64,000 nucleotides of DNA, taken from the NCBI GenBank assembly GCA_965228855.1, contig CBDDIJ010000003.1, forward strand, positions 3,328,001 through 3,392,000, read 5' to 3'. Positions 47,160 through 60,215 of the stretch are shown here, piece after piece (positions within the stretch are counted from its first letter, which is position 1; each line of letters opens with the position of its first letter). Below the pieces are notes generated by a model. It did not search any database. It worked only from the letters and a program-made list of their open reading frames with translations, and had not been told where the DNA came from. A program made the position numbers and the translations under genes. This DNA comes from Candidatus Obscuribacterales bacterium. GTDB lineage: Bacteria > Cyanobacteriota > Vampirovibrionia > Obscuribacterales > Obscuribacteraceae.

Positions 47160-47690
47160 ATGAGAATTGAACATTTTAACCATGCCACCGCCAGTGATGC
47201 TGGCACATCAGGAATCGCACGCAGATTGCTGGACGACTCCTGGACGCCACCATCTGAGAAACAACAAACGAAGCCAATTGAAAAACCGGACGCGCTTAAC
47301 AGTCCTGAGCAGCGCTTCAAAGATATGATAGAAAGCGCCAAAGAAGGCCGAATCGACTCGACAGCAAAATTGATGATGCTCAATGCTCTGGTGGAGGGCA
47401 ACGTACCTGGAATGTATGCGGCAGGAAACAAACTGAATCAAGCGCTTACAGAAGCCGGAGCAGACTACCGCGTCAGACTCGGCATAATGGAAGACGAGTC
47501 AGGCGCAGCGGACATAAGTTTCGCGCTTGTCAAATCGGACGAGAAAGCCGAAACAATTCTCCAGGATCTCGTCGACAAAGGTGACAACAGCCAGTATCGA
47601 GAGCGCGGCATGCACATCAGCATTCCGGCACCTGAGCAAGAAGAGCCTCAAATCATGATGCCGGAGCCGCGTCGCCAGTTCGACATCTAA
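47160..47690 (+). CDS. Hypothetical protein
   Basis: GAAGGA RBS before ATG 47160. Confidence 0.6.
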   Translation: MRIEHFNHATASDAGTSGIARRLLDDSWTPPSEKQQTKPIEKPDALNSPEQRFKDMIESAKEGRIDSTAKLMMLNALVEGNVPGMYAAGNKLNQALTEAGADYRVRLGIMEDESGAADISFALVKSDEKAETILQDLVDKGDNSQYRERGMHISIPAPEQEEPQIMMPEPRRQFDI

Positions 47691-48607
47691 CTTTTGCCGG
47701 CAGCACTCAATTGCTTGAATCTGGCCACATCACGCATAGGTGGATCGCCAAACAAGCGCTTATACTCGCGCGTAAACTGCGAAGCGTCGTCGTATCCGAC
47801 CCGCAGAGCAGCACTGCTTGCATCGACATCTTCAGACAACAGCAAGCGCCGAGCCTCCTGTAAGCGCAGCAATTTTTGAAATTGCAACGGACTCATTGAG
47901 GTGGCTGTTTTAAAATGTTGATGAAAACTGGATACGCTCATTCCCAGGTCACGAGCCAGATCCTCGATGCTAAGCGCTTCATTGAAACGCGTTCGCAGCG
48001 TTTGTACCGCTTTACCGATCCTATTAGTATGTCCATTGTATGCGGCCATTTGCCGCAAACGAGGACCGTGATCGCTCATCAATAACCTGTATATGATTTC
48101 ACGAATCACCAGAGGCGATACCACGCGGTAGTCACTCGGACAATCCAACAATCGAAACAATCTTACAAACGCATCCAGAAGCTCACCTTCCAGACGTCCC
48201 ACATCGATCGATTTCACACAATCATTTTTCCCGGGCGACACACCAGCTTCAACACTCACAGATGCGATAAGAGTAGGCTCCAGATCCATTTTCAAACCGA
48301 GAAACGGCCTGTCCGGACTAGCTTCGACAATGCGAGTTGAAACTGGGACATCAAATGACGTTAGCAAAAATTGCGACGGATCATAACGGAACAGATGCTC
48401 TCCCATCTGCACTTCTTTGGCGCCTTGAGCAATAATGCATATCGACGGAGAATAGACACCATGATGTGGGTGCACCGGCGGCGTCACATGCTTGAAAAAA
48501 TTCAGCCCGTCGGCGACTTCGTTGGTTCCTTCAAGAACTGCGCGCCTGCTGACAATTTCAACAAGTTCAGTTTTATTGTTATCGTCCCGCAACTTTTGAG
48601 TCGTCAT
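47687..48607 (-). CDS. AraC-family regulator (YqhC-like, AraC_N plus HTH)
   Basis: PSICIIAQGAKEV, MSVSSFHQHFK..T.MSPLQFQK.LRLQEAR and VGYDDASQFTREYKRLFG. Confidence 0.93.
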   Translation of the reverse strand: MTTQKLRDDNNKTELVEIVSRRAVLEGTNEVADGLNFFKHVTPPVHPHHGVYSPSICIIAQGAKEVQMGEHLFRYDPSQFLLTSFDVPVSTRIVEASPDRPFLGLKMDLEPTLIASVSVEAGVSPGKNDCVKSIDVGRLEGELLDAFVRLFRLLDCPSDYRVVSPLVIREIIYRLLMSDHGPRLRQMAAYNGHTNRIGKAVQTLRTRFNEALSIEDLARDLGMSVSSFHQHFKTATSMSPLQFQKLLRLQEARRLLLSEDVDASSAALRVGYDDASQFTREYKRLFGDPPMRDVARFKQLSAAGKS

Positions 48608-48843
48608 AAAATTCAATCCAATTCCGTACCTTCTTAGAGCGTATCGCACGTTTCAGCCACTATCAATCTATTCCAGTCACTTTTGGAGGAATGTCCAATG
48701 ATTCTGGAATTTTGTTATAGCCCAGGGCAACAAACCCAGCATATCATTGAAAGGTCGGTTGCGGCTGTTGCATTTTTAGCCAAGCAACCTATTCAATATA
48801 ATGCGTACCGCATTCATGCGATAAACCAACTTTCCGCGTCTAA

Positions 48844-49919
<1,076 letters not shown>

Positions 49920-49948
49920 TCATCAGAAATAGAATCAGGAGCAAACAA

Positions 49949-51010
49949 ATGTTAAAAACAGGAATCAAAACAAAAGCTTACGCGGCTTTCAGCACCGAAG
50001 GCGATACCAAGCCACTAGAGATTGTGAGACGAGAACCTGGTCCGACCGACGTTCTTATCGATATCAAGTTTTGCGGTATATGCCACTCGGACATTCACAT
50101 GGCAAAAGGCGAGTGGGGACAAACAGTCTACCCCGTCGTTCCCGGTCATGAAATTGCCGGTATCGTGAATAGCGTCGGCGATAAAGTAACGAAATTCAAA
50201 GTCGGCGATCACGTCGGTGTCGGCTGCATGGTCGATTCATGCGGCGAGTGCGATGCCTGCGCCGAGGGTGAGGAGCAGTACTGCAGCAAAATGGTTCTAA
50301 CCTACGGAGTCCTCGAACGTGATGGAAAAACAATGACATACGGCGGATACTCAGAACGAGTTACGGTCGATGAGCGATTCGTAGTCCGCATTCCTGACGA
50401 GCTACCTCTGGACAGAGCTGCGCCATTGCTTTGCGCAGGCATCACAACATACTCGCCGCTTACTCATTGGAACGCGGGACCTGGCAAAAAGGTGGCGGTA
50501 GTAGGAGTCGGCGGTCTGGGTCATATGGGTATCAAGCTCGCGGCGGCTCTCGGCGCGGATGTGACTTCCATCAGTCGCTCAGACAGCAAGAAAGCCGATG
50601 CACAAAAGATGGGAGCGACAAACCACATCGCCACATCAGACAAAGCAGCGTGTGAAGCCGCGGCAGAACAATTCGATCTGATCATCAATACCGTTTCGTC
50701 AGCTGCGGATATGAATCTCTATCTCGGCATGTTGAAGCGCGATGGTGTAATGGTGCTTGTAGGTGCTCCCCCGGACACCCTGCCCGTCCATCCATTCGCG
50801 TTGATACCGAGACGTAAATCGCTTGCCGGCTCCACCATCGGTGGCATTCGCGAAACTCAAGAGATGCTCGACTTCTGTGCCAAACATAACATTGGTTCAG
50901 ACATCGAACTCATCACCATCGACCAGGTCAATAAAGCCTACGAACGCATCGAGAAAAGCGATGTTCGTTATCGCTTCGTGATCGACATGTCGTCTCTTAG
51001 CGGCAAGTAG
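49949..51010 (+). CDS. Zn-dependent NAD(P) alcohol/aldehyde dehydrogenase (cinnamyl-ADH family)
   Basis: CGICHSD, GHE, CGECDAC..GEEQYC, APLLCAGITTYSPL, GVGGLGH and DVRYRFVID. Confidence 0.95.
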   Translation: MLKTGIKTKAYAAFSTEGDTKPLEIVRREPGPTDVLIDIKFCGICHSDIHMAKGEWGQTVYPVVPGHEIAGIVNSVGDKVTKFKVGDHVGVGCMVDSCGECDACAEGEEQYCSKMVLTYGVLERDGKTMTYGGYSERVTVDERFVVRIPDELPLDRAAPLLCAGITTYSPLTHWNAGPGKKVAVVGVGGLGHMGIKLAAALGADVTSISRSDSKKADAQKMGATNHIATSDKAACEAAAEQFDLIINTVSSAADMNLYLGMLKRDGVMVLVGAPPDTLPVHPFALIPRRKSLAGSTIGGIRETQEMLDFCAKHNIGSDIELITIDQVNKAYERIEKSDVRYRFVIDMSSLSGK

Positions 51011-51081: not shown

Positions 51082-52152
51082 CTATCGTATTGCAGCTCTG
51101 ATCCCGTACTGGGCAGCCCGCATCAATAACGATTTGCCCTGTCGCTTCACTTGTGTTTTAACAGGATGAGCAGCCGGATCATTGCCAATAGCTTTGCCCT
51201 CTCCTCGTTGTTTCGTTGTCTGACCGTTACTGGCGACAAGTTCTTCCTCATTCTTGTCATACATCGGCCGGCCATAATCGCTATAGGCTTTCACATCGAA
51301 GTCTTTGTATTGAACAAACGGACGAGAAGCCATTCTCTGATGCATAATCACATCACATGTTTTCACCGCATGTGGTGGCAGGTCCATTTTGACAGGATCG
51401 AAAGTTCTCGGATTGATGACTGTTCTGTTAAACACATCGGACGTCAGAAAGCGTTTCTTCTTTTCATACGCAACATCAAAATGCTGCATTTCGCTGCGTT
51501 TACGCTCCGCCGCCGTATGCTGGCTCAGATGCTGCTTCTGCATCTCACTGAACTTCGCGTTTTTCTCGTCGCGGCTCAGAGCCGGATCGACCCAGACAGC
51601 ATTGAGAGTCTTGGCGAATTCCAGTTCGCTAGCCAGATCCTTAGAATTCCAATAGCCCGGCAGACAGGTCAAGACTGTACCGTCCGACGCCATAACGAAC
51701 ATTTGAATATTATGCGGACCGGCTCCGTTTGTCGTGTCGACGGCCTGTCCATTGGGACTGTGTTTACGCGAACTTCCGGCATATCCCTTGTTCTCGATAT
51801 CCTTATAGCCGCATACAAATTCGTTCTTAAGCAGACTAAAAACTGGATCTTGCGAGAGCGACACGGCTCTCAAGCTGTTCCCGGCGCTTCAAGTAAAACC
51901 ATCGAGCTTTCCGACCATATGCACCCAGAGTATCAGCTTGTCTTGCGCCGCCGCCTCTTCTTGCAATTTATCAAGGTCTCGGCTCCAGGTGATCTCATTT
52001 GTCAGTCGTCCAACATTCTCCGAACAGATTTGTCCGGAATAGACCGGTGACGCCTGTAATGGCGAATTCATACCGGATGAAACGATACCAGTCGCTAAAG
52101 AAACAGCCAGAAGAGCCGAAAGCAACGGACGAGCGGCAAGTGGATTTCGCAT
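51082..52152 (-). CDS. Putative exported thioredoxin-fold (SelN-like) selenoprotein, 356 aa, in-frame TGA at 51891-51889
   Basis: Track ORFs 51889-52179 and 51082-51873 share a frame and are separated only by TGA plus 5 sense codons: ...MVGKLDGFT-U-SAGNSLRAVSLSQDPVFSLLKNEFV. GGAGA RBS before ATG 52152, signal peptide, SECIS-like hairpin. Confidence 0.78.
51850..51873 (-). promoter_or_regulatory. Candidate bacterial SECIS element
   Basis: mRNA UGA-AGCGCCGGGAACAGC-UUGAGAGC(CGUGUC)GCUCUCGCAA: GAGAGC/GCUCUC stem with GU in the loop, loop about 23 nt after the UGA. Confidence 0.6.
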
Positions 52153-52223
52153 GTTCCATCTCCGAGAGCTAACATGCATTGTACACCGAGATGCTTCGGA
52201 CTGCTGACGCTATTCCAGCCACC

Positions 52224-53723
52224 CTAGCTAATCAGGACAGCAGCCTCCACTTCATCTACCTTCTTATTCACGGCAGCAGCCGCAATGCCGCTTATCATGC
52301 CGTTAAACACAAAATGATGCAGCGGAGAAACAGCCTTCCAGTAAGCCAGACCCAGAAGTCCAGACGGTAGAAATTTTGCGGTTTGAATCAGCTTGCTCCT
52401 GCCAGGCGAAATTTCTTCGATAGTAAACTCCAATACCGCCTCACCAGGCAAAATCATCTCAGCAACGAGGACCAGTGCTTTGTTTTTCTCCACACGCTTC
52501 ACGCGCCAGAAATCGAGAACATCACCGGCAGAGAGTTCACTGGGACTGCGCCGTCCCCGTCTCAAACCTACGCCGCCTATCGCCTTGTCCATGATGCCAC
52601 GCAGGCGCCACAACCAGTTGCCGTAGTAGTAGCCGGTGCTTCCGCCCAGGCGAACGAGTGGATTCCAGATTTGCTCCGGCGTCCTATCCAGCGTCAACTC
52701 CCGCCGATCCATGTAGACCGTGCCACCTGACCACTTCGCATCGGCTTCACTGCTCCAGGCCACTGGCCAGATTTTGCCTGCGTCCGTCCAGTGACTTTCC
52801 ACGAGATAATTTTGCGTTTTGTTCAACGCATTGCGAATCGCGCCGCGGCAGCTTAGAAGGTCCTGTTTGATGATTTCTCTTATGTCATTCTCTCGGCACA
52901 CGGTAGGATTCTTCAAGCCTTCAGCCAGAGGGCGCCCAAGGTAGGCAGGGACGGGCGTGACCAGATGTATCCAGTATGAGCTGAGTGTGGGCGTGAAAAA
53001 CGGAATCGGGATGATCAATCGCGGGCCAAGCCCGGCAACATCGGCGTAAATTTCCATGAGGTCACGGTATCGGAGAATATCCGGGCCACCGATGTCAAAA
53101 GTCCGCCCCCTTGTTTCCGGATGAGTTAAACAACCGGCTAGATAGTTGAGAACGTTTACGATTCCTATAGGCTGCGTTGGCACCGATACCCATTTAGGCG
53201 TGATCATCACAGGAAGCCGCTCCACAAGATAGCGGAGAATTTCAAACGACGCACTGCCGGAGCCGATTATCATCGCAGCTCTGAGAGTAGTAAGAGGAAC
53301 CTTACTCCTCGCGAGAATCTCGCCGACCTCAGCGCGCGATCTTAGATGTTTACTCAGATTTGGTGAGTCCTCACCCAGACCGCCGAGGTAGATTAGTTGG
53401 TCAAGACTGGAATTATCCGCAGCTCTCACCATATTCTCGGCGGCAGTACGGTCATCGTCTGCAAAATTTCTTGACTGGGCGTTCATAGAATGGACAAAAT
53501 AGTAAGCCTTTTTGCACCCTTGCAGGGCCGCCTCGATTGACCCCTGTTCAAGCACATTCGTCTCGACTAGCTCGACATTCGGATGATCGGCCCAGTGGCG
53601 CCCTCGTAATTTGTTGAGGTCACGAGAGGTTGCTCTCACAGTCCAACCTTCGTCCAGAAGCTTTCGAACCAGTCTGGTTCCAACATATCCTGTTGCGCCG
53701 ATCACGGCGACTTTGTCATTCAT
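52224..53723 (-). CDS. YbjT-like NAD(P)-binding SDR with DUF2867 C-terminal domain
   Basis: VIGATGYVG, AYYFVHSM, HLRSRAEVG, IIGSGSASFE, GDVLDFWRV and GLLGLAYW. Confidence 0.9.
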   Translation of the reverse strand: MNDKVAVIGATGYVGTRLVRKLLDEGWTVRATSRDLNKLRGRHWADHPNVELVETNVLEQGSIEAALQGCKKAYYFVHSMNAQSRNFADDDRTAAENMVRAADNSSLDQLIYLGGLGEDSPNLSKHLRSRAEVGEILARSKVPLTTLRAAMIIGSGSASFEILRYLVERLPVMITPKWVSVPTQPIGIVNVLNYLAGCLTHPETRGRTFDIGGPDILRYRDLMEIYADVAGLGPRLIIPIPFFTPTLSSYWIHLVTPVPAYLGRPLAEGLKNPTVCRENDIREIIKQDLLSCRGAIRNALNKTQNYLVESHWTDAGKIWPVAWSSEADAKWSGGTVYMDRRELTLDRTPEQIWNPLVRLGGSTGYYYGNWLWRLRGIMDKAIGGVGLRRGRRSPSELSAGDVLDFWRVKRVEKNKALVLVAEMILPGEAVLEFTIEEISPGRSKLIQTAKFLPSGLLGLAYWKAVSPLHHFVFNGMISGIAAAAVNKKVDEVEAAVLIS

Positions 53724-53935
53724 TGTCACCACTCCAGCCGACTTCTCTATTACCACATTACATCCTCGACGTGAGCAAGAGGTGAACTACCGGAGCCGTT
53801 AGCAAACTTTCTACAAACCGCAAGTAAGTAAACGAATCTGCGCTCGAAACCGGCAAACAGTTTTCAAACTGTTTGGACCCTCGCAACCGTCACGACCAGA
53901 GCAATATACTGTCCGAGTAAACTTGGTAACGAGTC

Positions 53936-57995: not shown

Positions 57996-60215
57996 CTAGA
58001 GACTCGACATTTTTGTTTTTCCTTCGCGCTCCCAGAAGCGCAGCTTCCGGCAGTTTTCGATGAAGGTCGACGCATCAGCCGCTTTACTGAGTTGAATCAT
58101 TCCAGCGTCGTCGTTGCCAGCGACTCCGGCTTTGGTGAACAAAACAGATGCGGCCTCGTTGTAACCAATGAACTTTTGATGAGCGAACGCATCAGAAACA
58201 AAGTCTTTTGCAGTCGCATCAGTGGACAACTTGGTGGCACCCTCAGGTGATACCAGAATAGCAACTGCATCGAATAGCACTGAAGGACCGCCATTCAAGC
58301 GGATGTCTGCGTCTATGTGCGAGCCGTCACTTGCATCCACACCACCAATTTTCGGAGCCACGATTTTTACCTCGGCACCTTCCCTGGTGGCAGCCTCTTT
58401 CAACGCGGCAACGAGCTTGGCATCAACGCCGTCGCTCACGAGTATACCGAGGCAGCGGTCTTTGAACGAGTCCGGACCGTTCTTCAAAATGCTCAAAGCA
58501 TTGGAAGGAGGCAATTCTTTTGTTGCCTTTGCAGCTTTAGCCGGGGCTGGCAATGATTTCATTCCCAGACCATCCGCTACACGTTTGGCAAGATCGCCAT
58601 CAATGTTTAACAGATGTGAAACGACTCGTTCACGTATCGACGCCTTTTCGACCTTCGAGAGTTCGAATGTCAAAGCGTCCGCCATATGAGTTTGCTCGAT
58701 AGGCGTTTGACTGATGTAGAACTGCCTCGCCTGGCTGTAATGATCAGCAAATGACTCGGGTCGTTGCCTGATTTTTGGGCCATTAACTTGTTGAGGATGA
58801 GTCTTGAAGCCTTCAGCAAGATTCTCTCTGGAGCCACCCCACGAATTCGGTTCGTAGTTGGCCCTTCCTTTTACGTTGACGAAATTCATGTGTCCGTCCT
58901 GCTGAAAGTTGAAGACTGGACATTTAGGAGCATTGATCGGCAATTGAGTGAAGTTAGGCGAACCGAGCCGCTTTAGCTGTGTATCGAGATACGAGAAGTT
59001 TCTGATTTGCAGCAATGGATCGTCCGTGAAATCGATTCCAGGAACGATATTTTGCGTGCAAAAAGCGACTTGTTCGGTTTCCGCAAAAAAGTTATCGACA
59101 GTTCTATCGAGAACCATCCTTCCGACTTTCCTTACGGGAACTAGCTCTTCTGGAATTATCTTTGTCGCATCCAGAACATCGAAATCGAACTTATTTGCAA
59201 ATTCTTCATCGAAGACTTGCATTCCTAACTCCCATTCAGGGTAGTGACCGCCTTTGATCGCATTCCAGAGATCGTGTCGATGGAAGTCAGGGTCGGCACC
59301 GTTTATCTTGACGGCTTCATTCCAAACAACTGACTGCATGCCTTGCTTTGGCTTCCAGTGAAACTTCACAAATCGGCTCTTGCCGGAAGCATCAACCAGT
59401 TTGAAGGTGTGAACGCCAAAGCCTTCCATGAATCTAAACGATCTCGGAATTGCGCGGTCAGACATTATCCACATAACCATATTCATGGACTCTGGAGTCA
59501 GCGAAATAAAATCCCAGAAGTTATCATGCGCAGTTGCCGCTTGAGGGAAAGCACGATCCGGCGCTTCTTTCGCAGCGTGGATCAAATCCGGGAATTTGAT
59601 TCCGTCTTGAATGAAGAAAACAGGAATATTGTTTCCGACCAGATCCCAATTGCCTTGCTTTGTATAAAACTTGACCGCAAATCCGCGAACGTCTCGAGCG
59701 AGGTCAAATGACCCCTTGTTTCCTGCGACAGTGGAGAAGCGGACAAACACTGGAGTTTTCTCGCCTGCTCGCTGGAAAAGGTCTGCCTTGGTGACGTCAG
59801 CTTGGGATTTGTACAGTTCAAAGAAACCGTGAGCACCAAAACCTCGAGCATGGACGACGCGTTCAGGAATACGCTCATGATCGAAGTGAAAAATCTTCTC
59901 TCGCATCATCTGATCTTCAAGCAACGCCGGACCACGCGGGCCAACTCTTAAGCTGTTTTGATCGTCTGATACGGGCACTCCGAGTTGAGTGGTCATAGTC
60001 GGCAATTTACCGCCTGATTGTTGGTGAGCCTCTCCACCTGTATGTGATGGATTTACGTCAGGCTGACCAACTGCGGTCGCCCCCTTATCGGACGGACTAT
60101 TGATGGCAAAATCAGCTGCTAAAGCCAGATTGTTTTGAATAGTTCCGATCGACAGAGAAACGGCCACAATCAAGCTCATTATTTTTCGATTCGAGCATTG
60201 ATTCAAAATCATCAT
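57996..60215 (-). CDS. katE: Large-subunit (clade 2) heme catalase with C-terminal DJ-1-like domain and N-terminal signal-like peptide
   Basis: [37 protein letters not shown] and PSVLFDAV. Confidence 0.95.

Follow-up and report, generated by a model that had tools for sequence, protein, structure and literature searches.

Selenoprotein N (SELENON) is a muscle-disease protein, and its SRE hairpin is a site of myopathy mutations. The protein is described as carrying a transmembrane anchor, an EF-hand and an N-terminal domain ahead of its thioredoxin domain (PMC8967691), with its selenocysteine (Sec) in an SCUG motif (PMC12839072), and in algae it is reported almost only as the Sec form (PMC7539508). 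The biochemical role of SELENON and of its Sec has been called enigmatic (PMC12936836). In bacteria, recoding of UGA as Sec depends on a SECIS hairpin, modelled with a spacing of 16-37 nt and a G in the loop (PMC13188914), and for SPS genes an origin of the eukaryotic SRE hairpins from bacterial SECIS elements has already been proposed (PMC4561486). Here we compare with these systems a gene from a 64,000-nt stretch of DNA, hereafter the window, of a Candidatus Obscuribacterales bacterium. The explanation that best accounts for the gene overall, and that we consider likely, is that its in-frame UGA is read as Sec via a downstream hairpin; the product is predicted to be an exported oxidoreductase of thioredoxin fold that has a homologous catalytic domain in common with SELENON. 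Sec recoding and thioredoxin-fold selenoproteins are already known; what is added here, and well supported, is a bacterial family missing from the catalogues examined and linked to SELENON.

The gene occupies 51082..52152 on the minus strand of the window, where a 356-codon frame runs from 52152 to 51082 and closes with a TAG; its only internal TGA is codon 88 (51891-51889). The list of open reading frames cuts this frame in two: 51889..52179 (96 aa) and 51082..51873 (263 aa, with a TTG start). A first-pass annotation of the window had joined these same-frame pieces through the TGA; the joined translation is indeed 356 aa, it lies on the minus strand, and the peptides quoted from it are exact. 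The observation made there that the downstream piece starts only at a TTG, with no clear ribosome-binding site, also stands. The ATG at 52152 has a ribosome-binding-like GGAG 7 nt ahead of it (52160..52163, minus strand), and no GGAG-like site lies ahead of the TTG. Support for the TGA itself, another point raised at that stage, comes from contigs of three of four sequencing runs, which cover the site with zero letter differences, the fourth run contributing no contig and two of these runs possibly being the source of the DNA.

On comparative grounds the two apparent genes are almost certainly one, with the in-frame UGA decoded as Sec. The Sec machinery sought in the genome is present, all of it over cut-off: selA (520 bits), selB (267.5 bits, with its in-frame neighbour), selD (371 bits), and a tRNA-Sec (73.5 bits) with the anticodon loop TTCAAA. 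Related genomes contain matches to the family in 22 of 41 cases, and 61 of the 64 matches carry a TGA, the other three being C-terminal pieces. When homologous loci were fetched and aligned (n=40, including some duplicates), 39 of them had the TGA aligned to residue 88, including loci only about 43% identical, and the fortieth has Cys-TGA, one codon off. The family is present in 22 of 26 selA-positive and 0 of 15 selA-negative genomes—all 22 carriers thus having selA—in a set of genomes that are kin rather than independent; a tRNA-Sec is found in 21 of the 22 genomes with the family. The recoding proposed at first pass is supported by the Sec machinery, the conserved TGA, Cys orthologues, covariation within the SECIS and co-occurrence with selA.

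Database entries might seem to tell a different story, as the downstream half is stored as a separate hypothetical protein: 115 of 120 listed matches start after the TGA. This would suit a TGA that is a real stop, whether in a pseudogene, through a sequencing error, or between two separate small genes. However, the stop would have to recur at one shared position in 39 of the 40 loci, it would split what an AlphaFold model predicts to be one domain, and intact Cys orthologues exist while the contigs agree at the site; the chance that the TGA is a true stop is very slight. The five listed proteins that span the site have Cys (two), Trp (two, P0037 and P0077) and Ser (one). A residue other than Cys at this position had been put forward as evidence against Sec, and the two Trp proteins among these five could speak for a TGA read as Trp or Gly, through a reassigned code or leaky read-through. 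Formally, the Trp and Ser forms do touch on that objection, and at face value the Trp forms count against Sec. P0037, however, is almost identical to locus L050, which carries TGA at the same site, and its Trp probably comes from a gene caller that translates TGA as Trp. Nor has the genetic code been reassigned, because TGA ends 1,289 of 3,910 open frames of at least 300 codons, as the other stops do. True sense-codon orthologues have Cys or Ser, the hairpin is gone in Cys forms, and the family tracks selA, such that we give decoding as Trp or Gly almost no weight.

Natural variants at the Sec site extend beyond the five spanning proteins. Cys orthologues comprise P0007, P0063 and P0171—two of the five and one further Cys form—and a second Ser form was seen besides the one among the five; such Ser forms would either have no catalytic activity or work in another way. 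For instance, P0063, P0068, P0171 and P0178 constitute a divergent branch of family A in which Cys or Ser stands at the Sec site and a C-terminal Y-D-K motif is lost, making them natural catalytic-site variants. In a sister subfamily, Cys occupies the site in 10 genomes elsewhere in the window's phylum, and two of the three tested lack selA. One locus, L057 (G020:C16:8680-9705), has an extra TAG upstream of the TGA, and is either a broken copy or an assembly error.

The hairpin that would direct Sec insertion, noted at first pass as GAGAGC/GCUCUC around a CGUGUC loop, is present at 51853..51872 (minus strand). Its loop lies 23 nt after the UGA, with G second in the six loop nucleotides and followed by U, on a stem of 6-7 bp; in spacing range, loop and stem it matches bacterial Sec-UGA/SECIS recoding, from which the gene shows no mechanistic difference (PMC13188914). 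Folded alone, the hairpin reaches -12.6 kcal/mol (z 0.47), and 132 of 200 shuffles fold as well, which is to say that it is no stabler than chance; the support for it is comparative. Once the offset paralogue and three loci that duplicate or nearly duplicate others had been removed from the 40, all 36 remaining homologues have GCC as codon +8 and GTG as codon +9, and all 36 encode the Arg at +7 by AGA or AGG. Invariant Ala, Gly and Pro residues elsewhere in the same homologues, at four-fold sites, use all four codons. A broader set of 145 distinct sites from three phyla comprised 114 TGA sites, 22 Cys sites (chosen as Cys with Arg at +7) and nine others that were set aside. Here a hairpin of at least 6 bp with a G-loop occurs at 102 of the 114 TGA sites versus 0 of the 22 Cys sites, and the stem shows double-sided changes among TGA sites, from G-C to A-U and from A-U to C-G. 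The bacterial stem has 4.5 expected pairs in register, compared with 0.54 after synonymous recoding.

The protein so encoded is very likely an exported protein of thioredoxin fold, as had been suggested. AlphaFold, run on 39 sequences, gave a model with pLDDT 86.7 and pTM 0.83, in which strands span 41-47, 80-86, 117-122 and 127-133 and U, at 56, follows strand 1 and precedes a helix at 57-66 (model numbering). The thioredoxin-like domain covers about residues 52-188 (51589..51999, minus strand) and places codon 88 (51889..51891), by alignment and model, at the probable nucleophilic position before helix 1. The top structural matches are all thioredoxin-like: 3f9u (Z 9.9, only a little above the level that unrelated models reach; rmsd 2.5 over 110 aligned), 2lst (8.7), 3ira (8.3) and 3ph9 (7.8). 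These belong among Thioredoxin_7, DsbD-gamma, DsbH, AGR2-ERp18 and UAS-type folds, from which the window protein differs in sharing only 12-17% identity, in a loop before the nucleophile that is five residues longer, in having Sec and no CxxC, and in an extra subdomain. AGR2 offers a closer parallel in having a single active-site Cys, that of its CPHS motif, which aligns with U in a weak profile match (E 0.36). An N-terminal hydrophobic stretch, found by a hydropathy heuristic in 34 of 35 homologues, points to export: a signal peptide is predicted at about residues 1-34 (52051..52152), with a hydrophobic h-region there, none in the mature part, and a putative cleavage site at its end.

Around the Sec, the lack of a partner Cys remarked upon at first pass extends throughout the family: position +3 is Gly at 75, Ala at 38 and Ser at 1 of the 114 TGA sites, so Gly or Ala at 113, and never Cys. 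This sets the family apart from CxxC and UxxC dithiol oxidoreductases, which have a resolving Cys at +3. Cys114 and Cys164 are common in the subfamily, yet neither seems to be an obligatory resolving Cys, since the sister subfamily has neither of them and several members have Val in place of Cys164. Arg95, at U+7 (51868..51870), is kept at 110 of 114 Sec sites and is invariant in the alignment of eukaryotic SELENON-type sequences. Pro146 of an NGAGP motif (51715..51717) aligns with the invariant Pro of the SELENON F-P-V motif and would be the thioredoxin cis-proline, its cis geometry being presumed from the alignment; it is nearly invariant in family A and absent in the sister subfamily. Family A also conserves a T-N-G-x-G-P-H-N-x-Q loop. 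Beyond the thioredoxin domain, residues 190-306 (51235..51585, minus strand) form a family-specific helical subdomain, a putative substrate-binding cap, in which 15 residues are invariant, most of them polar (R, S, Q, D, E, H, Y). Folded alone it reaches pLDDT 77.7; Foldseek returned no match for it at E<=0.001 and the best Z was 4.0, a result that indicates neither a new fold nor a function.

From these features we infer, as a best guess at catalysis, substrate and location, a periplasmic single-selenol oxidoreductase. In such a mechanism, SelB would bind the hairpin and insert Sec88, and the signal peptide would direct export of the protein. Sec88, placed where helix 1 begins and with the conserved Arg95 and the predicted cis-Pro146 beside it, would then act as a lone selenolate, attacking a disulfide or oxidised thiol on an envelope substrate to give a mixed Se-S intermediate. 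Since position +3 holds no Cys and the remaining cysteines are not conserved throughout the superfamily, this intermediate may be resolved by an external thiol. Arg95 might help to hold the selenolate or the substrate, and the C-terminal helical cap could select the substrate. We put the prospects of this single-selenol chemistry on protein thiols at about even. Alternatively, the same selenoprotein may act on a small molecule or a metal(loid), as a peroxide-, halide- or metal-handling enzyme with a pocket provided by the C-terminal subdomain. The invariant polar C-terminal residues together with the T-N-G-x-G-P-H-N-x-Q loop do resemble a ligand site, and both the missing resolving Cys and the many paralogues with different C-terminal domains would fit. 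Nonetheless, the nearest solved folds are those of protein-thiol oxidoreductases and chaperone-like proteins (DsbD-gamma-like, DsbH, AGR2/3, ERp18), and SELENON is itself described as acting on a protein, SERCA (PMC12839072), leaving a small-molecule role as the main alternative, though a less likely one.

The resemblance to SELENON that the first-pass annotation pointed out proved sound for the thioredoxin domain, for which sequence comparison makes true homology very probable. A profile built from 12 eukaryotic SELENON-type sequences ranks the genome's four TGA paralogues first to fourth among 96,163 six-frame segments, with E values of 4.7e-6, 1.3e-4 (the window gene), 4.7e-4 and 0.039, and the next match at 0.51. 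Profile-profile comparison with hhalign gave a probability of 94% and E 1.3e-7 over 104 columns, with U on U and Pro146 on the F-P-V proline. Pairwise, the window gene aligns with the SELENON-type sequence L194 at E 2e-7, over 53 residues only and with no other significant segment. L194 itself scores 0.98 against a chordate cluster and 0.86 against one that is named selenoprotein N (197 shared features; a score under 0.9 counts as a lead), and has SCUG, Arg at +4 and the SELENON domain order.

Could this instead be a generic thioredoxin-fold resemblance to which a chance motif adds, with no specific common descent? The aligned region is short, the deep branches of the tree are weak, and the eukaryotic sequences were fetched by a motif taken partly from the sister subfamily, for which reason controls were run. 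With 13 motif residues masked, 11 of the 12 eukaryotic sequences still score 15.6-29 bits on a broad bacterial profile, compared with at most 1.7 for 390 shuffles; on a profile of family A only, the 12 masked sequences score -3 to 13 bits. Eight other sites, CxxC thioredoxins among them, have a median of 0.7 bits versus 23.6. Alongside these controls and the ranking of the paralogues stands L208, a bacterial locus that links both sides, aligning with L194 over 351 columns (28% identity, E 2e-41) and having the same SECIS as the bacterial genes. A purely generic resemblance is thus largely refuted, and we consider it improbable.

The metagenome scan from which these sequences came returned 36 motif loci. 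Thirty-five we read as eukaryotic because many of them have intron-like frame breaks, or long frames with a membrane anchor and an EF-hand-like loop; L208 we read as bacterial because of its lipoprotein signal, pilin-like neighbours and SECIS. L208 (L208:1170-2393, minus strand) encodes a bacterial-type lipoprotein with the SELENON N-terminal domain and SCUG, and is the best candidate for modelling SELENON. In a FastTree phylogeny of 67 sequences over 126 columns, the eukaryotic sequences and L208 fall among bacterial Sec groups; the tree is a weak one, its CxxC outgroup not forming one clade and several deep supports lying below 0.6, and it gives no direction of transfer. Profile searches of protein databases found no match named SELENON among the best 120 or the best 150, which is no test of the link.

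Homology of the domain does not extend to orthology of the gene. Like SELENON of animals and some algae, the window protein has a thioredoxin-like domain alignable over those 104 columns with Sec at the same position, G-x-L-D before the Sec, Gly at +3, L-R at +6/+7, and Pro before strand 3; an exported or luminal location, predicted in the window protein, and a coding-region hairpin just after the UGA are likewise common to both. In contrast, it has T-U-S-A-G in place of S-C-U-G and no Arg at +4. With only 87 residues before U, it is without the transmembrane anchor, the EF-hand and the SELENON N-terminal domain, and it has the family-specific C-terminal helical subdomain instead. In the weak tree it is not the sister group of SELENON, to which L208 is much closer. 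Since it has no EF-hand, SELENON N-domain or SCUG, the window gene is a domain-level relative and not a SELENON orthologue, and the resemblance noted at first pass goes no further than that.

The parallel may extend to the RNA. In 25 distinct eukaryote-type sequences—L208 and four loci with an apparent intron in the stretch being dropped—a long hairpin begins some 6 nt downstream of the UGA, a position that matches the described SELENON SRE (PMC12936836). Its apical pairs 18-33, 19-32, 20-31, 21-30 and 22-29 are those of the bacterial SECIS stem, with mean pair probabilities of 0.31-0.41 in eukaryotic and 0.63-0.66 in bacterial sequences. In register 51 the eukaryote-type sequences have 2.4 expected pairs versus 0.37 after synonymous recoding, and a stronger outer stem lies in register 50. 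A search of 20 of the 36 motif loci found nothing at the Rfam gathering score, and no 3' SECIS was found for the eukaryote-type sequences. Because the inner pairs are only partly kept in eukaryotes, and some are favoured by conserved Arg and Leu codons, descent of the SELENON SRE from a bacterial SECIS is offered here as a hypothesis; the superfamily allows it to be examined at the level of base pairs, as an instance of what has been proposed for SPS genes (PMC4561486). Taken together, SELENON might represent in eukaryotes a very large bacterial superfamily, so far uncatalogued, whose members are exported thioredoxin proteins with a single selenol; it would have been acquired already as a selenoprotein, its SRE being a direct descendant of the superfamily's bacterial SECIS with the same nucleotides paired; the superfamily would also be the main user of Sec in Obscuribacterales, and may keep the Sec machinery there. 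This joint reading is tentative, and we place it somewhat short of an even chance.

The superfamily is indeed extensive: clustering at 50% identity (E<=0.001) gives 2,108 clusters, with Cys forms, fragments and possibly some ordinary thioredoxins included. Its core profile matches 93 of 251 genomes in the phylum to which a Planctomycetota record belongs, and 26 of 121 in that of a Fimbriimonadaceae record; most matches in the two phyla have one TGA and some genomes have up to eight matches, the weak matches including ordinary thioredoxins. Several genomes of the Planctomycetota record's phylum carry two distinct members of the superfamily in tandem, both genes having a TGA (L156, L160, L163, L164 and L165), which suggests heterodimers or a two-step relay in those subfamilies. 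The window's genome holds three further TGA paralogues, with one TGA each, and one relative without TGA. For example, the fourth paralogue (G000:C3:1338083-1338871, minus strand; L023/L060) reads G-A-L-D-D-R-F-C-U and has Arg at both +4 and +7; it resembles the SELENON motif more closely than the window gene does, and has the same SECIS register with a compensatory pair change. The fifth relative (G000:C5:354324-355217, minus strand; L072/L078) has Cys-Glu where the others have Cys-Sec, lacks the hairpin, and is possibly Sec-less or inactive.

Four of the six Sec candidates detected in this genome belong to the superfamily, and this is a lower bound, as the scan can detect a candidate only by a Cys paralogue within the genome or by a similar loop; antisense frames, dismissed by eye, made up most of the 36 rows. 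The other two are an MsrA (G000:C2 near 2345996, minus strand) in which TGA takes the place of the catalytic Cys and a hairpin follows, likely an unannotated selenoprotein of a known family, and a TlpA-like thioredoxin (G000:C5 near 1078754, minus strand) with a U-H-S-C motif and a CGUGA-loop hairpin, likely a selenoprotein of known kind. That the latter is the reductant for the family is speculation. The genome has no formate dehydrogenase alpha over cut-off, and its SelD has no internal stop.

Existing catalogues hold little that corresponds. The window protein matches no Pfam or NCBIfam family at E<=1, neither it nor the family-A profile has a sequence match in the PDB, and none of 41 diverse superfamily members reaches an NCBIfam cut-off (best 34.5 bits against a cut-off of 275). 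The nearest catalogued models are those of the VPGUxxT thioredoxin-like (seleno)proteins, NF041382 and NF041383, which with NF041199 (Trx7/PDZ) describe bacterial thioredoxin-fold selenoproteins of the same N-terminal W...A...GKP helix-strand type and give weak hits for some superfamily members; their Sec motifs differ, and the window protein has no hit to them at E<=1. An Atlas search with a natural Cys orthologue led only to unnamed bacterial clusters and Thioredoxin_7 leads. The family is absent from the part examined of Table 1 of PMC13188914 (119 families), and a SELENON-like prokaryotic family is not named in the main text of that paper or of the BSepDB paper (PMC13326102). Our literature search, whose scope did not take in the BSepDB family table, the algal selenoproteome supplement or Haft and Tolstoy 2025, found no description of the family. 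Two unnamed thioredoxin-like candidates are listed for a planctomycete (PMC4807772). As gene callers split superfamily genes, counts of bacterial selenoproteomes are likely too low. Structural work, substrate trapping and enzymology would become tractable with the bacterial relatives of SELENON, which are small and soluble and occur naturally in Sec, Cys and Ser forms, and with L208, a near full-length bacterial homologue.

The surroundings of the gene offer no operon-based function, because its neighbours are not conserved: no neighbour is common to more than 5 of 38 loci, and shared ones track paralogue lineages. A scan for promoters and terminators at the gene stayed at chance level. Among the neighbours, named here from inspection of their translations, an AraC-type regulator in divergent orientation to genes for an aldo-keto reductase and a zinc alcohol dehydrogenase (window 47687-51010) forms a set that converges on the gene and is shared with the closest relative only. 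Just 72 nt upstream, on the gene's own strand, is an NAD(P)-binding SDR-like gene (52224-53756, minus strand), a neighbour that is not conserved; a large catalase gene (57996-60215, minus strand) is situated about 6 kb from the selenoprotein gene.
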